A stretch of 61,120 nucleotides of DNA, filler included, from Dugesia japonica (Eukaryota), in assembly GCA_001938525.1 (NCBI GenBank). It is 5 parts of 5 records of this genome, joined end to end, with 100 filler letters (N's around TTAATTAATTAA, not from the genome) between each part and the next. Parts side by side here need not be neighbours in the genome. Positions count along the whole stretch, not along the records: positions 49,852 to 61,120 come from MQRL01625466.1; 4 more parts are not named here. One strand, given 5' to 3'. The notes beneath the pieces were generated by a model, which did no database searches, was not told the DNA's origin, and saw nothing but the letters and a program-made list of their open reading frames with translations. Below are positions 7,431-55,230 of this stretch, piece after piece. A program made the translations under genes and the position numbers. Positions within the stretch are counted from its first letter, which is position 1; each line of letters starts with the position of its first letter.

Positions 7431-8522
7431 AAAGTAGAATATTATTTTATGATAAATGTTAATCTATGAAAACTTGAATATAATCTATTTAATAAATTTA
7501 GATAGCGAATAAAAATTTATATCTTAACTATTATTTTATTTCTGAAAATAATTATCGCAGTTGATGACCAGTGAACATTTAGTATAAAATTGGTTTTTAT
7601 ATGATAATCTTATACCCGATTTAAAATTAAGGACATTTGTCCTTTTTACTTCCTCGTTGCATTAAATAAACTATCTACTGGAAAATAGTGTGATCCAGCC
7701 CAATTCCCTTTGAGTAATATATGACGATTCCTATTTAAAACGAAAGCTAGATCAGTTTGTTTTCCTTGGTTTGTGATCATCCAGTTAGAAAATATATCAA
7801 TCAAAACAATGATAAGAATTAAAAAGAAAGCCACTGTAACTCCAAATATTTATTTCCGTCCAAAATTGATAAATTACCTGTCATAATTCAGCTTGTAAGT
7901 AAATCCGGGAATGTCCGTGAAAAAAGAGACTCCTGTTGTTGTTGGTTAAAATCTACTAATAACAATTTGATATTCCTACCCAAGGTAGAATTAGTTATCA
8001 TAATTTCCCCAGACAATAAAACGATCAGGATAGAACCAGGAATTGTAGTTAGCAAGTAGGCGCAATAATTAGTGTCACTAATAGTTGTATCATCATATCG
8101 ATTTTATGCTTACATTTCCAACTAAACATGCCTACGACTAAATGATCTGGCACACGCATAATTTAATCGTCATAGTGAGATACATACAGGCCGGTTCCTA
8201 AGTAACCACAAGGCGCAGAAATTAAAACCCATAAAACCCGAGAGTATTTAATTTTATTATAAGTAAAACGATTATTATTTTGAATAATTTAAATATTATC
8301 CCTACTGGTGTTATTAAATTTTCCGATGTTATTTTTAGGAGTATCCATCTTGGGGTTACGGGAAAATAATCGGTAACGGGGATTAATAACAGCTTAAATA
8401 TCAGTAAAACCCGAAATAAATCGATCGTCCACTTCTATTGTTATCATTACCAGTTATTGTATGTAGCGACATTGTTGGAAAAATGACTTGTAATATCACA
8501 GCAATTACTATTAACATGATAG

Positions 8523-9102
8523 TGACTCGAATTGTGTTTCCTACTAGTTTGAGAAGATGCCACCGCATACTACGCCGTCTACTATTAGAGCGACACTTAA
8601 AACGCAAAGCGGAGCATGCTCTTCTTAAACCGTAAGCAAAATGATTTGGCGGTTCAAACCAAAGCCCTAGAAGCCGAGAACAGGAAATTACTGTTAAGAA
8701 AAATAGATTTTCTCAAACAATACATCTCTGACCTTTCCAGACAGATTGGGAATCCAGCCTGGATTCATTGAATCGATGACGACGATGTCGCCGCCTTCGA
8801 TTTTACAATAGACGACCCAGATCAATGGCTAGATCCTAGCGTATTAAACGATCTATAAATGTCATATTAATAAATGTTCTAAGAAGTATTTGGTTTAAAC
8901 TTTTGAGCAAGTTAAGGGAAAGCTATTGAACCCAAATCCAAAGGTTTGTGGGTGTGCACCTTCCATCAAGGGTGAGGTCAACCACCATAAACTGAATACT
9001 TACCCTAGGGGCGGTAGGTTAAATTCTTGAACGGGTACCCCTGAGGGCTGTTTTTTCCCAGCCACACTTTTATCACCGTCCAACTCAAGTGGAACCCCAA
9101 CA
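8523..9102 (+). mobile_element. Four-ORF element, copy 1 (partial: ORF-C plus 3' terminus)
   Basis: AG|TG ACT at 8521-8525 starts 'xTRIVFPTSLRRCHRILRRLLLERHLKRK...RKIDFLKQYISDLSRQIGNPAWIH*IDDDDVAAFDF..DPDQWLDP'. Stop at 8858, AATAAA at 8869, terminus GGAACCCCAACA at 9102. Homologous to copies 2-4. Confidence 0.85.
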
Positions 9103-21084: not shown

Positions 21085-23364
21085 ATGGACATAGTTTCAC
21101 CAAAATCCAATACAAGTACTCTTAATACGTTGATCACGTATTCAAATTGTCCAAATATTGATATACAATCTAATGATATATCAGTTAATTTGACCAATTC
21201 TCAAAACTTTCATGAGTTAGACCATAAAAACAACTATGGCTACAAAGTTTCAAGTAATGATAACAAGTTAAATCATCTACCATATCTAGCTCAAACAAAT
21301 TTGACAGAATGTATGGGTGACATAACAAATGATATTAAGAATCAAAATTCACATCTTAACTATGGAAACGGAATATCATTCACTGAATTTTCTAAAATGT
21401 CTGAAAGTAATATTCCTGGTTATTCCCCGTATTGTTTTTCAACTAAATTATTTCCTATTCCAAATCTACAAGAAAAACCACTAATAAATGACAACTATGC
21501 TGTAAAATCTACGGGAGCTTTTATTGCAGAATCTAATGAGCATCAAAACACTGTAAATACCGGTACTTCTTATAATTCAAATTTAACCTCATACAGAACC
21601 GTTATACCAGCTCATTTTCATCTATTTAATCAGAATTCACCCGAATCAACGTCATTTTATAATACCTCTTGGAATAATTATCCATTCCAAATATCCCCAA
21701 CTTATCCTATACAAAATTTACCAGATTCTACAATAAACTGGACGCAAAACAGTCAAATTACTAACAACAATTTGGTTTTTAATCCCTGGAGCTGCAAATC
21801 CAATCTTAACCTTCCTCCTATTAATGAATTTGGTTCAAGTAAGTAATTTATATTTGTTATATATTTAATAATTAAAAATAAATTAAAATAAATTTGTTCT
21901 CATAATAAAGATAAATAATTTCTTTATACATTGGTGATATTATTCAGACAAGCTAATTGTTTGAATGATTATTAACCGATAAGATAAGCACTGGCAGAAT
22001 AAACGCGTTGACTATTCTAACTGATTTATCTTGCAGTTGATAAAGTTTCCACTATCTATAATCGCGTCTATATTTGCTTATGATAAATTATGTAAATAAT
22101 CAAGGATATCTGAAATATAAAATTAATTACTTTCAAATCATAAAATTTTAAAATCCAGATTGCGATGTCAGCAGAGAGTGTGTTAATTGTGGAGCTAGTA
22201 ATACTCAGTTGTGGTCTCGAGACAATACTGGTTATTATTTATGCGACGAATGCGATAGGTTCTCCCAAAATAATAGTAGAAACATTGAAAAAATACCCGC
22301 AAATCAAGTTACATCAAGTACCGAAAATGAATTCATGAAAAAGTCTAATGCAGTGATTATTTTTTTTTCAAAATTTCCTGTTTAAATAATTTTCATTGAT
22401 AGAGTTTTCAGCAATATGGAAAACGATCAGATCTCGAATGCAGTAACTGTAAAATTACTAAAACATCTTTATGGAGAAGAAATAATGAAGGAGAACCAGT
22501 TTGTAACGCTTGCGGCTTATATTACAAATTACATAAGGTTTCCAAAATATTTTATCTCAAAATTAATAATAATTAATTTTAGTCTCTGAGACCTCTTTCA
22601 ATGAGAAAAGAAGGAATCCAAACTAGAAAAAGGAAACGGAAAACACAATTGAAACCGGTCTCAGGTCATATTGCTAATAATCAGAAAGTCCCTTCTTCAG
22701 AATCATCATCAGAACAAAATCAGGTTTTTTAATGATAAATTTAATAAGAATTTTGAGATATACACACTATTTTTAACGACACGTGCTTAGGTTTTGATAA
22801 TTATTATAGTTATTATGCATAGATACAGACTTATCTATTAACTATTATTTTAAAATTAATATCTCTTTCCTGTTTAAAAATGAATTAAATAAATTACTGA
22901 TAAGCAAAACTAAATCATTAATAATAATTGATATTATAATTGTAATTTATTTTAGTTTATCAATGCTGTAAAATCTTCCGAAAATTGTTATAACATGATT
23001 TCTGAAAATTCTCCAACATATATGCCAAATATATCAATCCAACCTTACAATCGAATTTTAAATTCAAATCAATATCAATTTCAATCAAGTGAAAATCCAA
23101 TAAATCCAGTATATTTTGTATTAAATTATAAAATTATAAACATTTTTCTTTATATAGTCGTATTTAAATTCTTCACTCAAGAATAACAATCCTTTCTATG
23201 ATTCTGAAAGTATACTTTATTCGTACAACTCTTCAAATAAAATTAAAGACGAACCCTTATCCATGGATAATGAGCAAAAGCCATATTCAACTATTCCCGA
23301 TAAAATCGATGTTAATTCTATAGTGAGAATTAATGAAATCTCAAACAATTCGAATTCGAGTTAA
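21085..23364 (+). CDS. gata4/5/6: GATA4/5/6-class transcription factor; coding exons 21085-21838, 22159-22352, 22403-22537, 22583-22723, 22956-23108, 23158-23364
   Basis: GT-AG introns keep frame throughout. N-finger [25 protein letters not shown]; C-finger [33 protein letters not shown] followed by [22 protein letters not shown] and TRKRK are GATA4/5/6 signatures. Probable non-coding exon with donor at 20789 spliced to the acceptor at 21067. Confidence 0.93.
21909..22086. promoter_or_regulatory. Cluster of GATA-binding sites in the GATA gene intron (candidate autoregulatory enhancer)
   Basis: WGATAR at 21909, 21982, 22026(-), 22038, 22052(-) and 22081, plus CGATAA at 21977. Confidence 0.45.
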
Positions 23365-29848: not shown

Positions 29849-32573
29849 NGGGTCAGGTATTCAGCGTATGGTGGTTGACCTCTCTCTTAATGGAAGGTAC
29901 GCGCCCATACACCTTTTTATTCGGGTTCACCATTTTCCCTTAACTTACACAAAGATTTAAGACAATGATACTCATAACATTTATTAAAAGGACATTTATA
30001 ATTCGTCTAGCAAGCCAGGGTCTAGCCACTGGTCTGGGTCAGGCAATAAAAAATGGAAGGCGGCGACATCGTCACTGTCGTCCCATTGCACCCAAGCGGG
30101 GTTACCAATCTGGCGGGAAAGGTCGGAGATATATTGTTTTAAAAAATCTATCTTTCTCAACAGCAGTTGTTTGGTTTCTGCTTCCAAGGGCCTTAGTTTG
30201 GTTCGCCAACTCATTCTGTTTTCTGACTATCAAGTCCAGTTTTTTATTAGTTGATCCCGCTGGGCCAAATGTCTAAGAAAGGCTCAGTCTGCTTTACACT
30301 TTAGATAGCGTTCCAACAACAGACGGCACATGATCCGATGGCAGAGATGAAGACTGTTAGGGAAATTGATACGAGGCACTAAAAAAGATTATAATTAATA
30401 TAGGGTAACTTGACACAAGAATTTAAATAAAACATTAAGATAGATTTGTAACAAAATCTTCGATACAAATTTATTTATAATGGAAATCTAAGGCAATTTA
30501 GTTCCAGGGGTCTGGATGCTCTTCTCGATCATTAGGGGCTCGAGAGGTATTTGCGTTCGGAGACGTAAAATATCATCAACCAGTTTATTTTCACGGTCAT
30601 GGCCGGACCGGATAACTTCAGTAAAAGATTCAACCTGTCTTTTCCAGGTTCGTTCCTGCAGGTGGGAGGCCTCGGCTTCCTTTCTGAAGGCGATACATTT
30701 TTTCTTATACCTTGTCACCTTACTTTTAGCAGTAGCGATTTCCGACTCCCATTGACGTTTTGCAAGTCGATATAGGTCCCAAGTGAGCTCGAGGTCCTTT
30801 CTCGGACTTTCTTAGTAGAAGCTGTGGGACAGTTTAACGAGGAATGCACTAAACAAATATTAATAAAAAAAATTTTAAAACTAACAACATAGGTAACTCT
30901 ACCTACGACCTGAAAATGAACAAAAGGTCGGTATAGTAATATTAAAGAAATCTCAATTAACAAGATTAACAACAGGTGAAAGTAGATTAAAATTAGTTAA
31001 GACACATATCTATTAATCAGTATCAGTAACAACAACATAACTTTAAGAGTCAGGAGTTGGATTTTCAGCAGGAGCGTTATTCTCGGCATCTTCTGACCCG
31101 GTGGGTTCCCTAGCTCCCAGAGCATGTTGTTGATAAATGCCTGTACCTCTGGTGGGGGGCGCTGGTGGTTGATAACGGAACAAGGTAGCAAAGTTACGTC
31201 CCGGCCCGGTACATTGGCGAAAGTTCAGTCGTTCCCCAAAGCTCTGAATCCGGGCTACCGCGGCTTTGACGGGGGGTAAATTCGACTTATCAGACAGAAC
31301 TCCCGCGTCTCGATGATAGGGATTGCGATGTCGTCTGAAAACCACGCGACGAGTCCGTCGATCTATTATACGCTCCCATATCGATTCCATTCTATATAAA
31401 TATACCGCAATTTATTCAAATTATCATATATAAATTAATGAAAATAGTATGAGTGACAAATATAATTATTCAACTCGCGAGTTTATTTTAAATGAGTAAC
31501 AGCGATTGACAGATTGCTGTCTTGCTTAAAAAGGCGTACTCTTCGTATCAATATCTACTGGAGTCACTGATGGGAACATCTCCGCGAAGCAAGCTAAATC
31601 GGTCTCGTCTGGGTGTTCTATTTTACTCTTTGTCAACAGATAAGCCACTAACTGCCTTAATCTGACGGTCTTGCGTTGTTTCCGAATTATTCTGAGCATA
31701 TTCCCCAGTTCCGTGGGCATAATCTAAATATGACAAATGACCAATGATTATATTGAAATTCGGGACCCCCTTGGACTAGCCCCTGTTACGTGATATGGAT
31801 TTTACTGTCCTCAGTGTTGCTAGTCCCAACGCTCAATATTATATTTGTGGGATTTTACTCATGATGAAATTACTGTCACCCAATAGCACCCCTGTCCTAT
31901 TGGGAGAATAATGTCTATCGGGACACTAGTATTCAAGGCTTTATCCTCATCATAACTGGAATAAGACAATAATCATACTTATTTCCATAATAAAATTAAT
32001 AGATCCACTAATAAATAATCGTAACATTAACTCACTGAAGGTTTTGACATTTAGAGATCATAGTTGAATCAGTTATGAAGATCAAAACCCTAATACTATT
32101 GTCAACAACACTAATAAAAATAATACTGATAATGATGACGATAATAATTATAATCATAATAATAGTGATAGTAATAATTATAATAATGATGATCGTCAAA
32201 TAACTTCCATAATAATGGTTCGATTGACCATACTAATAATACCAAGATTATCAATTTTAATGATGATAATAATAATCATACTAATGATAACTTTACTCCA
32301 GATAATAATTATAAGAGTAATTTTATAGTAATAATATTTATAATAAGATTAATTATTATGATAATGATAATATTTATAAAAGGAATATTTTCGGTGGAAA
32401 CATTAGGGAATTCTACCGGTTTATTCATGTCCATAGGATATTTGATAAAATTTCAGCGATAAGCCCAATTCTGGAATTTGAAAAATTCCGCTGAAAAGGG
32501 TTGCCTAGCAGTAGTAAACAATTTAAGATGCTATAATAATACACACTGAAAAAGAGATGTGTGTGTATTAACA
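29849..32573 (-). mobile_element. Four-ORF element, copy 2: ORF-0 31720-31526, ORF-A 31390-~31000, ORF-B 30848-30488, ORF-C 30378-29996
   Basis: All four ORFs align with copy 3, with frameshifts and stops. Acceptor AG precedes each (31724, 31392, 30849, 30379). TGCTAGGCAACC at ~32500 is shared with 50047. 3' end cut by a gap; 5' boundary uncertain. Confidence 0.85.
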
Positions 32574-32739
32574 TTTTCTTAACTGAGTAATAGCTTTAAG
32601 TGATTAGACTATAACTTTCCTATCGCTATTACCGGGAATACGATAGTGTATATTTAGTAAAATATGCGTGGTTTGGACACGAGAAAAAAACTGTTGCATA
32701 CATGAAACGGAGTGATATTCGCAAATTTTTTGATTGTGG

Positions 32740-34529: not shown

Positions 34530-36418
34530 ATACAGATAAATATTAACACGACAGGTAATCCAGTAGCACAGAAATCTCGAAGATTATTTGGAGAAAAATT
34601 TGATGCAGTAAAAAGAGAATTCGATCGTCTTCTGAGAGCTGGAATAATTTGCCTTAATAACAGCGAATAAGCCCCATCACTTGTTGTCGCTAAAAAACTA
34701 GATGGCTCATGGTGACATCAGATAATTAAATGAGCTAACCATACCAGACAAATACTCTTTACCTAGAATCCAAGATCTATTGAATAAACTTGGGGACTTT
34801 ACCATTTTCAGCAAATTAGACCTTAAAAAAGCATTTCATCAAATACCGATAGCAGAAAAGGACATTCACAAAANNNNNNNNNNNNNNNNNNNNNNNNNNN
34901 NNNNNNNNNNNNNNNNNNNNNNNTCATCAAATACCGATAGCAGAAAAGGACATTCACAAAACTGCGGTTATCACACAATTTGGTTTATATGAATACTGTA
35001 AAATGCCGTTCGGGTTGAAGAATTGCTTAGCTATTTTTCAAAGATTCATGGATAAAATTCTAAGAGAGCATAAAGACTTCGCGATATCATATGTCGATGA
35101 TATTCTTATATTTTTTAAAAGATGAAGCAGACCATGAAGATTATATACAAAAAGTAACCAACACCATTTATTCTATAGAATTAGAGATCAATGCGGATAA
35201 GTGTATTTTTCGATCACATCAAGTAGAATTTTTAGGATTCAAAATATGGAATCCTTCCTAAAACTGAAACAATCGAAAGCTTAAGAGAAATGAGCCTTCC
35301 AACGAACTTAAAGAGCTTGCAAAGATTTACAAGCTGCGTTGCCTTTTATGATTGGCTCATTCCAAATTTATCTGAAAAGATTGCACCACTTCACAAGCTA
35401 ATTATCAAAAAGAAAAAACCAAAAGGAAGTATACTTGAATGGACCAGTGATCAAGTAAATGCGTTCAACACCATTAGAGATGCATTACTGAATTTACAGC
35501 AATTGAATTACCCAAAACAATTTGTGTTAAAAACTGATGCATCATTAGAAAAAGTTGGAGTTGTATTGGAACAAGTGGAATCAGAAAGAAGACATATTCC
35601 AATTGCATTTTTTCAAGAAAATTGTCTTCTACAGAGAGAAATTACGCAACCTTCGTCAGAGAACTGCTAGCAGTAGTACTTGCAGTTAAGAATTTCAAGC
35701 ACTATTTGGATTCTACACCATTTGCCATACAGACTGGCCACCAGCCTTTATTAAAGATTGCAACTATGAAAGATCCGAATCCCAAACAATGGTGATGGCT
35801 TGAATTCCTCACTCAATTTTCCTTCAAATAAGAATATTTAAAAGGATCGGAGAACACAGTAGCTGATTTTCTTTCAAGAATAAACGCACTAAGCAAAGAA
35901 GTTGAACACATAACAGTGGATGAAATAATCAAACAGCAAGCAATCGAGAATCTACAAGTATTATTAAAACATCTTCCTTGAAATTAAGTGTCTCTGAGGA
36001 AGAAATAGTTATGGACATATCACAACCCAAACCGCGAATAATTCTACCAAAATCACTTTTATTAAGAAAATTCAAAAGTATTCACGATGGCTGTCACACT
36101 GGAGTAAAACCAACAACAACAATGATAGCTGAGAGGTATGTTTGGCCAAGAATGCGATCAAATATTCGTGAATGGTGCAGAATATGGGAGAATCGCCAAC
36201 GTTCAAAAACTTTGAGGCACACTAAATCTCCAATAACGATATTTCCTGATGCTTGTAGATTTAAATATCTACATTTTGACACAGTAGGACCNCTACAAGC
36301 AATAAACAACAAGCAAAATCTATTGACGATGATTAACAGAAAGGATTCATGGGTTGAAGCAGTGCCATGTCTACAAATAACATTCAATTACGTGATTAAC
36401 ATATTATTAAATACGTAG
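34530..36418 (+). mobile_element. Ty3/Gypsy pol remnant (RT, RNase H, integrase start)
   Basis: 'FSKLDLKKAFHQIPI', 'MPFGLKN', 'YVDDIL', 'LKTDAS...GVVLEQ', HHCC-like 'HDGCHTG...WPRMRSNI.EWC', 'HFDTVG'. Confidence 0.92.
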
Positions 36419-39400
36419 ATCAAAGTTGATTGCTTGTTAGATACTGGAGCAAGAGTTAATGTGATGAGTTTGAGAATATTGAAAAGATGGAGAAAAGTCA
36501 ATATATTAAAAGGTGAAGTCAATTTAAGATGTGCCAATAATAATCCGCTTGAAATCATCGGTACGATAAAGTTAGAAATAAAATTCGAGAAAAACGAAAC
36601 ATTTCAATTTATTGCGGTGAAACAGATACACCCAGATCTAATTAAAGGAATAGAATTACAGAAACAGTTTAGATTCCAACGGCTGAGAGAGACTAAATGC
36701 AATATAATGAAACGTATCTTTGTAATATAGAAGCAATGTATGGAGGTAATACAACGGATGAAGAAAGAGTACAGAGGGCAATAAAAATATTGATTAACAA
36801 GCCAAATGAGAATTTGGAGAAAGTTTTAACGAATTAAAAAGGAGTTTTCATAGTAGACAACGGGGATATCGGCAGAACAATAGTGGCAGAACATCCAATA
36901 ATCACAAGTGGAGAACCAATATATCCGAAACCACGGAGACAACCAATGCATTTAGAGAATAAAATAGATGAAGCTATCAAGAATTTGTTTGACAAGGGCA
37001 TTATTAGGAAGTGTAATTTGCAATGGATCACTCCATTAATATGTGTTTGAAAAAAAGAAAGAAAAAACGTTAGATTATGTCTAGATTTTAGAAAACTCAA
37101 TGCAATCGCAGAAAGATAGGCATTTCTGATGCCCAATATAGAAGAAATACTAGACAATTTGAGTGGTGCAAGATATTTTAGTACTATCNNNNNNNNNNNN
37201 NNNNNNNNNNNNNNNNNNNNNNNNNNNNNNNNNNNNNNNNNNNNNNNNNNNNNNNNNNNNNNNNNNNNNNNNNNNNNNNNNNNNNNNNNNNNNNNNNNNN
37301 NNNNNNNNNNNNNNNNNNNNNNNNNNNNNNNNNNNNNNNNNNNNNNNNNNNNNNNNNNNNNNNNNNNNNNNNNNNNNNNNNNNNNNNNNNNNNNNNNNNN
37401 NNNNNNNNNNNNNNNNNNNNNNNNNNNNNNNNNNNNNNTATATGAAATAAAAAAAATTGAAATTATTTACAAAATAATAACAGAATTTGTAAATTTAATA
37501 AATGAGTAAATTACAACGTTTGTAAAGAATACTGGAATTATGTAATTTTTATTTAAATAAAATAAATGAGAAATGATAGTAAAAGGAATGAATGGATTAA
37601 CGGTGAAATTGTACAGATGTATATAATCTAATGATTATTAAAGTATTAACAACGAGCTAGAATTTTAAGGAAAATATTTATAATACTCATTAAAATAAAT
37701 TAACAATAATAATAATAAGAGAAAATAAAATTAAAATAATACCTAAAAAATCGTAGAGCGTGGCGCCCGCCAAAGTGAATAATGAAAATGAACAACTATT
37801 TATACCCTTTGGAAATCGGCTATCGATAAATTAAGTCGACGTGAGTAAACAAAAAAAATCGTTTTCAAATAAGGAATATGGAAGAAAATAGGAAATTAAT
37901 CAATTTAGATGTACTTAGTAAACACCAAAGTTCTCAGCGTGTTTACATGAGCAAACAATTACGAAAAATACCTAAATAAAATAAAGATTTATATTATTGA
38001 AAAGTTGTAATTAAGAAAAATAGTAATTAAAAATATTATAATGATGTTCATAAAGCAATTTGAGTCATGATATCAATTGTAGTTTTAATAGAGATTATGC
38101 CTAAAAATGCAAATAAAAATATAAAATAATAAAAGCAAATTAGTAGTAGTTAATTATTTAATGCTCAAACGAATAATAAACATATCAATAGATTTATTAT
38201 ATTGTACAAAATAATGTAGATACAATCATCTTAAAAACTATCAAGCGTGAATAAAAATTGATATCATGACACAGTAAGAGCAAATACAAACGGAGATCAA
38301 AGTACAATAAAGATGAAAAATTAACAAAGTGAAAACTTAGGTTAATTACATTAAAATAACATAAAGTTGGGAAATTGATGAGAAGACATTTTATATTAAA
38401 TTTTTGAGTAAAACATTATTAACCAAATTTGAACAACTAAAGTTAAGAAAATAATAAAATAACATACTTAATCAAATTGAGAGAGGTTATAGACTAATAT
38501 TAACGATAATTTGGATTATTATAAAATTTGGGAGGGTTCTTGAATATGTAATTTTAATCTTGCTGACTTTTTATTAAAAAAATATTTTTATTGGTTCTTT
38601 TGTCAAGTATAGATTGTGAATGTGTGTTAAACTGATATATAAACAACTGTAAATGTTCATAAAATTTGGCAAAAGTGATTATATACTCTAGTCCTATTTA
38701 GAGAAAATAAATATTTTTTTGGAAGATCTTAGTGAAATTATTGATTTGATAGCTAATATTAAGGAACCTCAGGACGAACCTTTATCTGAGATTGAAGTCA
38801 GATTTCTTATCAAGTGAGTAAATTTTAGGAGTAAACGAGCTTAATTGTTGAAAACCCCAACAGTATACATGGATGATATATTGATAATTTCAGAAAATCT
38901 AGACCAGCACTATAAAATTTTAGACCAAGTTTTTAAAAGAATTCAAGAATCAGAATTGAGAATTAATCCGGAAAAATCTCATTTATTGTGAGCAGAAGTC
39001 AAATTTTTAGGACATGTCATAGACAAGAATTGAGTTCGAACCGATCCAACAAAAATTGAAGCGATAAAAGTTTCAGAAGACCTAAATTTGTAAAGAACTT
39101 GAGAAGCTTTTTGGGAATATGTAATTACTATAGAGGGTTTATCAATAATTACTCAAAGAAAGCTAGAAGCTTGGAAGAGCTATGGGAAGGTAATAATACA
39201 AAACTTGTGTGGTCGGAAAGTAGTGATAAAGCTCTTAATGAGATGAAAGAGGCATTAACAAAAGCACCAATATTGAATTTCCAGATATCAAAAAGATGTT
39301 TGTACTAGATGCAGATGTGAGTTTTGATGCAATCGGAGCAGTTTTATCGCAAATAGATGAAAGAGGTGTAGAACAAGTCATTGCATATGGGTCACATGTA

Positions 39401-39547
39401 ATGTCAGCTCATGAAAAGGGATATTGTATAACAAAAAACGAATTATTGACCATTTACTATTTTTGTAACGATTTTAAACATTTGTTTGGGAAAAGAGTTT
39501 TGGTGAGAACAGATCACAAAGCGATATCATTTATTAATTATTCTTAA
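36419..39547 (+). mobile_element. Second Ty3/Gypsy pol remnant (protease and RT 36419-37188; RT and RNase H 38863-39547), interrupted by a gap and an insertion
   Basis: 'LLDTGA' protease, 'RLCLDFRKLN', 'MPNIEEILDNLSGARYFSTI'; resumes at 'VYMDDILI', 'LRSFLGICNYY', 'FVLDAD.SFDAIGAVLSQ', 'RTDHKA'. Confidence 0.9.
37439..38862 (+). mobile_element. LTR-like insertion ending AAAACCCCAACA, inserted directly before the VYMDD codons of the Gypsy RT
   Basis: Sharp junction CCCCAACA|GTATACATGGATGAT at 38862/38863; 5' end lost in the gap. Confidence 0.55.
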
Positions 39548-49851: not shown

Positions 49852-52755
49852 TGTTCAGGATAGCATGCACACACTCTCAATATATCATGCCGATGAATAG
49901 CTGTCAGTATGACACACCTTTAAATGACACATCTCAGAACGATAATAGGTGTCACCCGATAGGAGTAAAGATTTTGTTTGGTGTTTTTTGTGTGCATACA
50001 TTACACATGGTAGCCTGACATTTTTCAGAGTAATTGAGTATAGGGTTGCTAGGCAACCACATAATGCATTTATTTTATGTTTTCAGATTTTCCATCACCT
50101 GGAAACTATTTAAATAATGTAGATTTGAATATACGAGTAAGGTGCGATAGAAGGAAAAATCCATATCATCTATTTTCGTAATTTTCACAAGATATGGTAG
50201 AGTTTGAGGTTGTCAATTTAAATTTTAATATTAACTCCGTCTCTAATTCTGTCTTTATTATCCCCTTTATTAGTCCATTTATTAATATTATTTCGAGTTA
50301 ACAGTATTAATATTATTATTTTAGGCACGACCGTATAGTTTGTCTACCAGGATTAGCCTGATTTTTACCGGGTTGTTATCAGCGTCTATTTAATATCGGA
50401 AAATGTCATTATCAGTTCTAATATCTCCATTACAGCCTGTCTGAGAAGTTGAGTGTGTTGTTATATTGATATTATGGTTACGCGATTATTATTATGATTA
50501 ATATTAGCCGTATCCTTTTGGATTTCAGTATTATTGACATTACCACGTTATTATTGTTACTACCTTACTCATTAAAATCGAAGGGCAATATTGGGAAATA
50601 ATTCTCGGAATCCTCACTAACTTTAGCGATGATAACCTAAATATAAGTAATATTCGTTGAATAAGAATTCGACAAGCAGAATTTTCAACTCATTACCCTA
50701 CCCTGATTTATGACTCTTATTACTATTTAAAATTACTTNNNNNNACCACCGTAAACAAGGAACCAGGGCCGTTATTTGTGATAATCAACTTGGTCTAGGA
50801 AACTCACTAGAGATTTATCAACCATAAATAACTATCTAATTTTTAGCCAATGCCAGCTGAATTATTTCATTCATTAAAATGGATAAGGCGACAACGCCAA
50901 GCGTCCTAACTGAAACAATTAATTGCTCACCTCTTAACCAAAGAGAGGGTTGAGCACCCAGATGAGACTGATCTACGTTNNNNNNNNNNNNNNTTTCCTT
51001 TAGAAGAAGGAGTAGATGTAGTTGACGATTTATCATTGTGTTAACATGAAATAAATTTGATATGAAACCTTTTCTGACGTTTTCTATTTTTAATGCTTAT
51101 ATATTTATTTTATATCTTGACCCTTTACTTAGAAATGGAATCTATTTGGGAACAAGTGATATATAGAAGGATCCGCAGGGTAATTTTCCGTCGCCATTAT
51201 AACCCGCATAAAAGAGATGCCGTTATCTTGGTAGATAGGACAAATTTACCCCCAATAGAGGCAACAGTGGCTCGGATTCAGAACTTCGCGGAGAGGGTAC
51301 GATTTCAACAGTGGAATGGCCCTCTACGTAACTATGCTACGGCCTTCCACTATCAACCTTCAGCCCCACCCCCGGTCATGCAGGCTTTTATATCTAACTT
51401 GCTCTGGGGCGTAAGGGAGCCAACCGGGGTGAACGATGTTGAAAACACGGTTCATGTCATTGATAATAACATTACTCCACCATAAAATCTATCTTACTTT
51501 GAAATTAAAATAAATAAGTGTCTCGTTCGTTATAATCTGTTTTTAGATTTGCATGCATTTGTTAATGAAAATTCTGATACATTTATTAAAATCAAGGAAT
51601 ATATTGTATGTCTGTGTAGTCATAATACTAATAATCCAGTGCATTCCTCTTTGAACAAATCACAGGCCCCGAACAAAAAACTGCGAGAAACTATTGAGGA
51701 TCTTGATCTCACTTGGGACTTGTGTCGACTGGCAAAATGTCGATGGGAGGCCGAAATAGCCGTCGCCAAAAGTAAGGTGTCTCGCTATTAGAAGAAATTT
51801 GTCGCTTTCAAAAAGGAAGCCGAGGCTTCCTACCTACAGGAGCGAACCTGGAAGAGACAAGTTGAATCTTTTTCAGAGATTATCCGGTCCTGCCATGACC
51901 GAGAAAATAAACTGGTTAACGATGTTTTACTCCTCCGGGCAAAAATACCGCTCAGTCCTTTGATGATCGAGAAGGGTACCCAAACCCATCGGACCTAGCT
52001 CGTCTAAAATTTGTATTTTGTAAATAAATGTATTGCACGATCTCGCTTACGAATTTAATTATTCATCCTAATTTTACTTAAATCCTGCCGTCATGTTACC
52101 TATGTACTAATTTAATTTCTTTTAGTGCCTCGCATCACTTTTCCCACTGGTCTCCACAGATGTCACCGTATAATGCGCCGCCTGTTGATCGAGCGCCATT
52201 TAAAAAGGAAAACAGATAAAGTCTTCCTCCAACATTTGGATCAACGAGATATTCTCATAAAAAACTTGATAACATAGTAAAGAAACAAAGTGATTTAGCA
52301 TCCCAAACCAAGGCCCTGGAATCCGAAACTAAACAATTATTGCAAAGGAAAATAGATTTCCTAAAGCAATACTTAGCTGACCTTTCCCGCCAGATTTGCA
52401 ACCCAACTTGGGTCCAATGGGACGACAATGACGATGACGCCACCTTTAATTTTACGGTAACGGATCCCAATCAGTGGTTAGATCCAGGAGCTTTGGATCT
52501 GCTGTAGATGTTTTATAAAATAAAATTTGCATGGTTAACGTCGTATTCTTTTCATAACTTATTAATAATAGGGAAATTAATGAACCCGGATACAAAGGTT
52601 GTGGGCGTGCACCTCCTCTTAAGCAAGAGGTCAACCACCATCAACTGAATACCTACCCTAGGGGCGGTAGGTTAAATTCTTGAACGGGTTTCCCTGAGGG
52701 CTGTTTCCCCTCAGTCATGTTTTTCCTACCATCCAACTCAGGTGGAACCCCAACA
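49852..52755 (+). mobile_element. Four-ORF element, copy 3 (most complete): ORF-0 50850-51044, ORF-A 51135-51485, ORF-B 51640-52007, ORF-C 52126-52507
   Basis: Begins TGTT right after a gap and ends GGAACCCCAACA. Acceptor AG ends at 50846, 51132, 51639 and 52125, most with a CTAAT branch-point-like motif. AATAAA after each ORF (~51050, 51509, 52023, 52519). Confidence 0.88.
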
Positions 52756-53478: not shown

Positions 53479-55230
53479 TAGTGGGGTTCCATCTGAGTTG
53501 ATGTTAGAAAAATTATGGCTGGGGGAAAATAGCAGCCCTCAGTATAGTCGTTGACTCTCAACCCATAATTGGAGTACAGACTCGCACCTCTTTGGTTCGG
53601 ATTCACAATTTTAATTGATTTTATGACAACTAAGACAAAGAATTACTATATATTAGAAAAATTTATTTATATTAAAGTTTTCGGGTTCATCCCATTAGTC
53701 GGGCATGTCGCTCTTAAAATAGAACGCGGCCTCGTCATCGTCACTATTCCAATTCGTCCATGTTTCAAGTTCATATCGTGCGGTCAAATCCGCGATATAT
53801 TGGGTTGGGAAGTTGACATTATTAAAATGTCGGCTTTCCATGTTGTTGGCTAGAATAACTAGTTTGTTGAACATCATTAATTTTTTTCGAAAAAATATAA
53901 CTAGAAAATTAGTTCAGTAAAAATACAACACATCATGCAGGACTTTTATTGTATGACAAAGTTATATCCATATGCACCACTATACACGAGGGGTCTGTGT
54001 CGATTTATCTATAAGCAGTGAGTCCGATGGCAGTTGCTCATGCAACTTTAAGATATCATTCACGAGTTGTGTTTCATGTTGATATAAGCACTGAATGATA
54101 TCTGTAAAGGCCGTTAGTCTGGATTTCCACTGGCACTCTTGCATATGAGAGGACTCCATCTCAGACTTATACTCCTTACACCGTGTCCGCGCCCGTTTGG
54201 TATTGGCCTTTTCGGCTGCAACCTCAGCGTCTCATTTACGTTTCGTTAACTTGTACAAGTCCCAGGTCATCTCAATATTCTCGCTATCCACTCGCAGTTT
54301 CTTATTCGAAACTATGGATCGAGAGCTGGATGAGTTCATTAAAATGAGTTTATGATAAATACAAGCTATTTACAAATTAAACATCGACAACATTGCTAAG
54401 TCATAAAAATTAATAAGTGAAAAGACTTAAGTAAACTTAACTTAACAAGAATTTATTAGATTAAACAACTAAAATTAGGCTATTAATAATGTCCTAAGTA
54501 ATCCTCCCAATCTGCCTCTGGTGAGGCGTATGGAGATGGGTCTTGACCAACAATCTGATCTTGGTCGGGCCAGTGTTGGTATAGCTAGCGTTCCGCCGCA
54601 TCAATAAGTAGCTGGAAATCGGCTTCGGTCGGTGGAAGGTTGTATACCTACTTCTCGCCGTTACGGGTTATGCAAGCGTCGGAATACTATTCGGTTGGTA
54701 CGTTTGTCCCGAACTAATTGCCATCTAAAGTCTGTTACTAGAATAAAATAACCAAAACAATTATATAAGAGGTTGTGTTGACGAATAATAAATTCGGAAC
54801 CCGAAGATTCTAAACAGAACTGTGACTTTAATTATAATAGGAACATCGAAGGAATTAGTTTTAAAGAGAAAGACAAATAACACAAGGAACATCATTTACT
54901 TGTTGATAGAATCAATTCATAACAAAAAGTTTCAATGTCATAGGCTCAGGGATTCCAAAGCGCAAATTTTGGCAAAGCATACCAGATCCGTCTAATCTAT
55001 GTGCTCAATTCTCTCCGGGAATAAGAAATGACCAATTAGTTGTCACTGGCGAGCTGCCTTCCTCTCTCTGCCATTAATCGCAAGGTATTGTATAGCACAT
55101 CAGGCATAGTTCTAGAAAAATGATATGTAATAAATTGTTGGATAATGAGATGATAATGAGAAAATAACGGAGCCCCTGAAATAATGATAAAGCTACTGTT
55201 AACACAAATCATCGAGCCTATCATCAAAGT
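53479..55230 (-). mobile_element. Four-ORF element, copy 4 (divergent subfamily): ORF-0 55107-~54940, ORF-A 54737-54483, ORF-B 54339-53980, ORF-C 53900-~53650
   Basis: 'MPDVLYNTLRLM...IEHID*TDLVCFA'; 'WQLVRDKRTNRIVFRRLHNP'; 'NKKLR...MTWDLYKL.KR...LLIDKSTQTP'; 'QYIADL...W..W..DDDEAAFYF'. Terminus CAACTCAGATGGAACCCC. 5' boundary unknown. Confidence 0.82.

Follow-up and report, generated by a model that had tools for sequence, protein, structure and literature searches.

The sag gene of MMTV and the nef gene of HIV are encoded in the LTR, each as a single ORF in U3 that is reached by splicing. The motif of Bim and of lyssavirus P that is relevant here reads DKSTQT. Both proteins are binders of the dynein light chain LC8 (DYNLL), for which a natural pattern, [D/S]KX[TVI]Q[TV], and a phage-selected sequence, V-S-R-G-T-Q-T-E, have been described; LC8 motifs flank coiled coils, and proline is inhibitory at positions -4 to 0 (PMC3078936). 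LC8 is regarded as a homodimerisation hub, in which a client fills both grooves (PMC7919418, PMC3078936). Among retroelement proteins, foamy virus Gag recruits LC8 through a coiled-coil segment of a structural protein (PMC3705263), and CERV, an accessory protein from a spliced mRNA, acts on nucleic acid of its own element, Cer1 of C. elegans (PMC10309623). Burro/GYPSM1, a planarian giant gypsy-like element, has a mononegavirus-like fusion protein and a BIR domain in the ORF1 polyprotein (PMC6431247). LC8 recruitment by viruses and genes borne on LTRs are both already known kinds.

I analysed a 61,120-nucleotide stretch of Dugesia japonica DNA, filler included (assembly GCA_001938525.1; hereafter the window), in which a small ORF named ORF-B occurs in three copies (Table 1). 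ORF-B resembles LC8 clients in its sequence [D/E]-K-[S/G]-T-Q-T, in I/V at -5, in a proline-free core and in a predicted unstructured tail adjoining a long helix. It differs from them in having P, H or S at +2; it is a predicted binder only, and it is an accessory ORF of a retroelement without a sequence homologue. As in sag and nef, the coding sequence lies in an LTR and would be reached by splicing, but the ORF-B LTR has four ORFs, each with its own acceptor, apparently downstream of the promoter region. ORF-B may also be compared with CERV and Rev-type proteins as an accessory protein of an LTR element with a spliced mRNA, as judged from its splice signals (for CERV, PMC10309623); it differs in its LTR location and its LC8 motif, and a role in RNA export is a guess. 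Foamy virus Gag and, by prediction, ORF-B are both retroelement proteins that recruit LC8, whereas ORF-B is small and non-structural and carries a canonical TQT (for Gag, PMC3705263).

An earlier note on this DNA had proposed that the ORF-B copies of the window end in a conserved LC8-binding TQT motif. All three C-terminal motifs were found where the note had placed them, each in frame and downstream of the TWDL block; TQT is present in copies 3 and 4, but copy 2 reads KSIQT. Copies 2, 3 and 4 are all broken and cannot make the ORF-B protein: codon 36 of copy 4 is an in-frame stop (54232-54234), copy 3 has one at 51789-51791, and copy 2 has a frameshift between 30848 and 30790, close to the 5′ end. 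No PBS was found behind the window copies and no 5′ end was found for them, so they are probably solo-LTR remnants.

Table 1. Features of the ORF-B LTR copies in the window, and copies of the last internal ORF of the element on other contigs
Feature	Position	Strand	Remarks
K-S-T-Q-T, copy 4	53992-54006	-	I at -5, D at -4, P at +2
K-S-I-Q-T, copy 2	30509-30523	-	Departs from TQT
K-G-T-Q-T, copy 3	51972-51986	+	
ORF-B exon, copy 4	53980..54338	-	Divergent subfamily; splice acceptor lost; natural stop 53980-53982
ORF-B exon, copy 3	51640..51998	+	Start at acceptor AG/TG
ORF-B exon, copy 2	30488..30848	-	Start at acceptor AG/TG
AATAAA 3′ of copy 4 ORF-B	53945..53950	-	
LTR remnant, copy 4	53479..55153	-	ORF-O ~55107-54938, ORF-A ~54737-54483, ORF-B, shortened ORF-C (matched 53817-53683); LTR 3′ end at 53479; every ORF broken
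LTR remnant, copy 3	50685..52755	+	ORF-O from 50850, ORF-A 51135-51485, ORF-B, ORF-C 52126-52507; LTR 3′ end at 52755
LTR remnant, copy 2	29850..32724	-	ORF-O 31720-31529, ORF-A 31390-31043, ORF-B, ORF-C from 30378; 3′ end lost in N gap
LTR remnant, copy 1	8516..9102	+	Partial ORF-C and LTR 3′ end; without ORF-B
Last internal ORF	L291:1667-2431		
Last internal ORF	L294:5622-6242		
Last internal ORF	L297:476-1618		
Last internal ORF	L298:16-1311		
Last internal ORF	L300		
Last internal ORF	L301		
Last internal ORF	L302		

In the fetched loci, ORF-B is one of four small ORFs that lie in a fixed row, O-A-B-C, inside an LTR of 2.7-5.8 kb (mostly 3.6-4.6 kb). Searches of the D. japonica genome with ORF-B gave 11,219, 10,754 and 10,645 first-look candidates, totals that are not copy numbers, and 150 candidates were scored each time. 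Counted from the TWDL anchor, similarity breaks off sharply about 1,050 nt downstream and 2.7-3.6 kb upstream, and the LTR has the ends TGTTGGG..CCCCAACA. An exact 4-bp target duplication was found in 10 of 13 two-ended copies (6/9 in one set and 4/4 in another). A PBS-like sequence of tRNA-Pro-like type adjoins the LTR 3′ end; 256 exact sites of the end plus this sequence were found, with 0 control matches, and 19 of 41 such loci fetched match the ORF-B LTR, while others belong to a related family. At one locus (L077), the 3′ LTR adjoins two ORFs, one RING and one helical, and the 3′ internal region of this locus recurs on other contigs with 66-90% identity, extending into env and pol domains. 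On one of these contigs a fusion-glycoprotein domain (L290:3-953; PF24664, E 1.7e-56) is in the same frame as protease, RT, RNase H and integrase, separated only by stops, although the protease match is below the cut-off. Further ORFs lie 3′ of pol, including a separate 399-residue BIR-RING ORF (PF00653, E 4.7e-14).

With TG..CA ends, a target duplication, a PBS-like site and the order PR-RT-RH-IN, the element has the features of Ty3/gypsy, and the guess of the earlier note that ORF-B is of viral character fits an Env-bearing retroelement. By its sequence features the host element of ORF-B may be called a Burro-like, Env-bearing gypsy retroelement; "Burro-like" is based on an Env in frame ahead of the protease and on the BIR domain, whose placement differs. 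In their described features, Burro/GYPSM1 and the ORF-B element have in common accessory ORFs, a BIR domain, long LTRs, thousands of copies and a fusion protein encoded in frame before PR-RT-RH-IN; the contigs of the ORF-B element stop short of gag and of its full length. The BIR domain of the ORF-B element is in a separate BIR-RING ORF 3′ of pol, and the sequence seen covers ORF1 without its 5′ part. The available part of the Burro description has no LTR-internal ORFs (PMC6431247), as against four in the ORF-B element.

ORF-B lacks a conserved ATG. The sequence AG/TG (the slash marks the acceptor boundary) stands 65 nt ahead of the TWDL anchor in 133 of 177 copies, and AG/TG also precedes ORF-C in 96 of 138. 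The earlier note had started the copy 4 ORF at an ATG (54337-54339), which overlies the lost acceptor at this very place and is, by this comparison, probably not the real ORF-B start. AATAAA or ATTAAA occurs within 60 nt after ORF-B in 152 of 177 copies, compared with 1443 of 4825 background windows. Upstream there is a conserved CCGTTGCAG, followed 13-29 nt on by a donor-like GT. This mini-exon was found in 31 rows, 24 of them with a donor, and an A precedes the donor in 24/24; its length and phase vary. It was not found in the window copies or in some long copies. Since joining the A at the donor to the TG at the acceptor yields A/TG, ORF-B is likely to be a spliced exon whose start codon is formed at the junction. 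RNA reads from three runs were placed on one complete main-subfamily LTR (135, 16 and 9 reads per run); all were partial fits, and no splice joint was found among them. With the patterns used, only 2-3 of 16 long copies showed a fixed TATA box, which leaves the promoter position uncertain; judging by TATA-like sites in these few copies, the promoter region seems to precede the four LTR ORFs. Flatworms have a trans-spliced leader ending in AUG. Trans-splicing of the leader AUG directly onto exon B was considered and rejected, since it would put ORF-B out of frame.

Is the K-x-T-Q-T motif maintained by selection? Main-subfamily copies were picked with a query that ends before the motif; 120 were taken, and 13 were dropped for N, indels or <55% identity over codons 80-96 (two divergent drops still have KxTQT). 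In the 107 copies left, the modal frequencies at K/T/Q/T are 0.97/0.92/0.92/0.93, those at -2, +2, +3 and +4 are 0.51-0.57, and all four Thr codons are in use at the motif. Calculated over 103 copies, the motif has a pN/pS of 0.06 (0.01 when restricted to variants common to three or more copies), against 0.54 at the neighbours -2, +2, +3 and +4 (shared variants, 0.45) and 0.20 in the helix (shared variants, 0.15). In the same copies pS at the motif is 0.78: silent sites vary freely. The motif is thus under purifying selection, and the constraint acts on the protein rather than on the DNA. The earlier note had asked for the motif to be compared with its flanks, and the comparison came out clearly in favour of the motif, by pN/pS in the 103 copies (0.06 vs 0.54) and by invariance in a pool of 164 copies.

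These 164 copies pool three subfamilies (107, 39 and 18 copies) that are 44-65% identical. All four motif residues are common to the three, and KxTQT is intact in 79/107, 32/39 and 12/18 copies, respectively. The copy-4-like group consists of 18 in-register copies picked from 30 loci that had been found by a query containing the motif, duplicate, truncated, frameshifted and intermediate copies being left out. In the 164 copies, K-x-T-Q-T is more invariant than every one of 85 windows of its shape; 0.125% of random 4-codon sets are as invariant, a value that is not a probability of independent events because the copies are related. Tight conservation is not confined to the motif: shared pN is <0.01 in 35 of the 118 codons of ORF-B, and ENKL is intact in 99/107 copies compared with 79/107 for KxTQT. 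Of the 103 main-subfamily copies, 53 have an open ORF-B. It was in replicating elements that selection took effect, and the window copies are dead remnants.

The residues around the motif are I/V at -5 (105/107), E/D at -4 (E 81 and D 17 of 107; D in 15/25 of the copy-4-like set), K at -3 and G/S at -2, followed by T-Q-T; this series agrees with the natural LC8 pattern and with the phage-selected V-S-R-G-T-Q-T-E (PMC3078936). Pro is absent from -7 to -2 and occurs at -1 in 3/107 only. The residue at +2 is P in 59, H in 22 and S in 17 of 107, and the D/E preference of the loose consensus is not seen. P at +2 is present in Bim and in the dynein intermediate chain, so D/E at this position is a preference. 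The ORF-B motif forms a conservation island relative to its flanks. Such islands have been published as a filter by which true LC8 sites are told apart (PMC5746249).

AlphaFold2, given 51 natural open copies, predicted a single helix at residues 12-101, a tail with pLDDT 63-67 and a pTM of 0.44, and the best hydrophobic period over residues 21-101 is 3.55. The coiled-coil protein foreseen in the earlier note thus agrees with a predicted helix of 90 residues with heptad periodicity and with a motif in the low-confidence tail. Residues 22-60 are basic (10.7 K+R vs 5.1 D+E). The host genome has two canonical LC8 proteins, one of which is 78/89 identical (88%) to PDB 1pwj, a solved dynein light chain 2, and identical to it over residues 57-82. 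It also has 56 Dynein_light matches, an expanded light-chain family. A complex prediction with two ORF-B tails (residues 70-118) and two host LC8 chains scored 0.64, and the control in which LC8 was replaced also scored 0.64. By its sequence, the ORF-B tail is predicted to bind host LC8. As for LC8 recruitment for dimerisation or transport, the motif fits from -5 to +1 and the host LC8 is canonical, but nothing favours transport over dimerisation. Apart from this, some light-chain paralogues (among L061-L072) may be the true partner of ORF-B.

I consider it moderately probable that ORF-B is a spliced LTR accessory gene and that its predicted coiled-coil protein is clamped by host LC8 into a parallel dimer. 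An LTR transcript would have a short non-coding exon ending in A spliced onto exon B, which starts with TG, to give AUG, and it would end at the poly(A) signal of ORF-B itself. The product of about 119 residues would consist of the helix 12-101 with its heptads and a disordered tail. Each tail would add a beta-strand to a groove of one LC8 dimer, and the LC8 dimer bound to two tails would clamp ORF-B into a parallel coiled-coil dimer. The basic first half of the clamped dimer might then act on RNA or DNA of the element itself, in a Rev-like or CERV-like manner; this is the least certain step, a doubtful one taken from the charge of residues 22-60 alone. A wider idea is a long shot: each LTR would be a self-contained four-gene unit with splice-made start codons, and thousands of solo LTRs would keep yielding a protein that binds LC8 and reshapes the LC8 complexes of the host, for example to counter PIWI-guided silencing in planarian stem cells.

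The motif was picked after the fact, the copies share ancestry, and a poly(A) signal is close downstream, so that chance, a by-product of a DNA or RNA signal, or recent common descent might be invoked. This is very unlikely and is largely refuted by the pN/pS and cross-subfamily data: silent sites at the motif are free to vary, and the motif is kept between subfamilies that are 44-45% identical. By chance, [KR]xTQT occurs about once per 27,000-60,000 six-frame residues (4 in 122,236 residues of the window, of which two are copies 3 and 4, and 8 in 219,772 residues of 15 other loci), which amounts to about 0.2-0.4% for a 119-residue ORF. A protein constraint might also have a cause other than LC8. 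T-Q is an ATM/ATR site, and the conserved residues might be a docking site for a kinase or another protein, or might pack on ORF-B or ORF-C; the upstream P-L-x-x-L-M/L-I stretch is also conserved, and ORF-C is helical too, by weak Pfam coiled-coil matches. This is unlikely, however, since K at -3 and T at +1 are constrained as much as T-Q, Ser replaces Thr at -1 in 0/107 copies, -2 alternates between G and S as suits the LC8 pattern, and the AlphaFold2 model gives the tail no fold.

If the partner is LC8, ORF-B could be made in bulk as a sink for LC8 or a flatworm-specific paralogue, weakening host complexes in transposon silencing or apoptosis. Such a sink is distinctly improbable: LC8 is abundant, the Drosophila LC8 silencing complex is not known in flatworms, very few RNA reads were found, and one motif per chain together with a long conserved helix exceeds the needs of a sponge. 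It would nevertheless suit the roughly 11,000 first-look candidate copies, the share of open ORF-Bs given above, the BIR-RING gene on the same element and the many Dynein_light matches, and Piwi-guided silencing in Drosophila needs LC8 (PMC7919418). Alternatively, LC8 bound to the tail might couple the particle or the RNA of the element to dynein, which would then transport it. Such a role has been proposed for foamy virus Gag, whose interaction with LC8 has been connected with the movement of capsids to the centrosome (PMC3705263). The same evidence of selection on the motif applies to this explanation, and the element has a fusion protein, but it is quite unlikely, for nothing connects ORF-B to a capsid. 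Since LC8 is described as a homodimerisation hub (PMC7919418, PMC3078936) and ORF-B has a single motif beside a long helix, it is most likely that LC8 clamps an ORF-B dimer rather than linking ORF-B to dynein.

No homologue outside the D. japonica genome was found among the near lengths covered by word-index searches, either with one copy (2 candidates) or with the 51-copy alignment (555 candidates). ORF-B gave 0 hits against 1.84 billion representatives and 0 matches in a Foldseek search of a viral library, and Pfam returned only coiled-coil families below the cut-off. The ESM Atlas gave 0.90-0.93 to unnamed clusters, which with their low recognition are a weak lead only. Apart from Repbase and from Grohme et al. 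2018, whose text and supplements might already treat LTR ORFs, the literature available gave no description of Burro LTR-internal ORFs and none of a retrotransposon protein with a TQT motif, and nothing useful emerged from it on start codons formed by splicing in errantivirus env.

Most accessory genes of invertebrate LTR elements have no function to their name. For ORF-B, selection on five residues allows a host partner to be proposed. If ORF-B binds LC8, an element of the transposon class exploits the LC8 hub in the manner of rabies virus and other viruses, and Burro-like elements come closer in appearance to complex retroviruses, with the regulatory genes placed unusually within the LTR and kept by solo LTRs. 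The role of LC8 in fly Piwi silencing would offer a testable tie to host-transposon conflict in a regeneration model.

Several further observations concern the element and its surroundings. ORF-C (window copies in Table 1; L243:3439-3828) has an AG/TG start, a helical look and an acidic W/D-rich tail, and may be a partner of ORF-B. An ATG of its own is present in ORF-O, together with the conserved motif E-H-x-D-E-T-D-x-x-C-F-x-E-M-F-P. The 399-residue BIR and RING (IAP-like) ORF of the 3′ internal region (L293:4376-5572) has 834 first-look genome candidates. The last internal ORF ahead of the 3′ LTR is helical-looking, with about 400 residues, and its L298 copy is without a Pfam hit; most copies seen have Q-T-Q-T-L-T near the start, possibly a second LC8-type motif. 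The related LTR family (L203, L208, L210, L179) has the same terminal motif, PBS-like site and U5 motif, no ORF cassette in the last 0.8-1 kb, and a TATA-like box that stands roughly 0.6-0.75 kb before the end, which suggests that the ORF cassette was inserted downstream of the promoter. In the window, decayed pieces of RNase H and integrase zinc finger from other gypsy elements lie at 35290-39547, and a 253-codon ORF without an above-cut-off Pfam match (21085-21846, + strand) is probably a host exon. Copies 3 and 4, which belong to different subfamilies, lie tail to tail on one contig, 0.7 kb apart (52755 and 53479). A young LTR copy (L245, L246) adjoins ORFs that resemble, by eye, a Polinton-type DNA polymerase and its neighbours.
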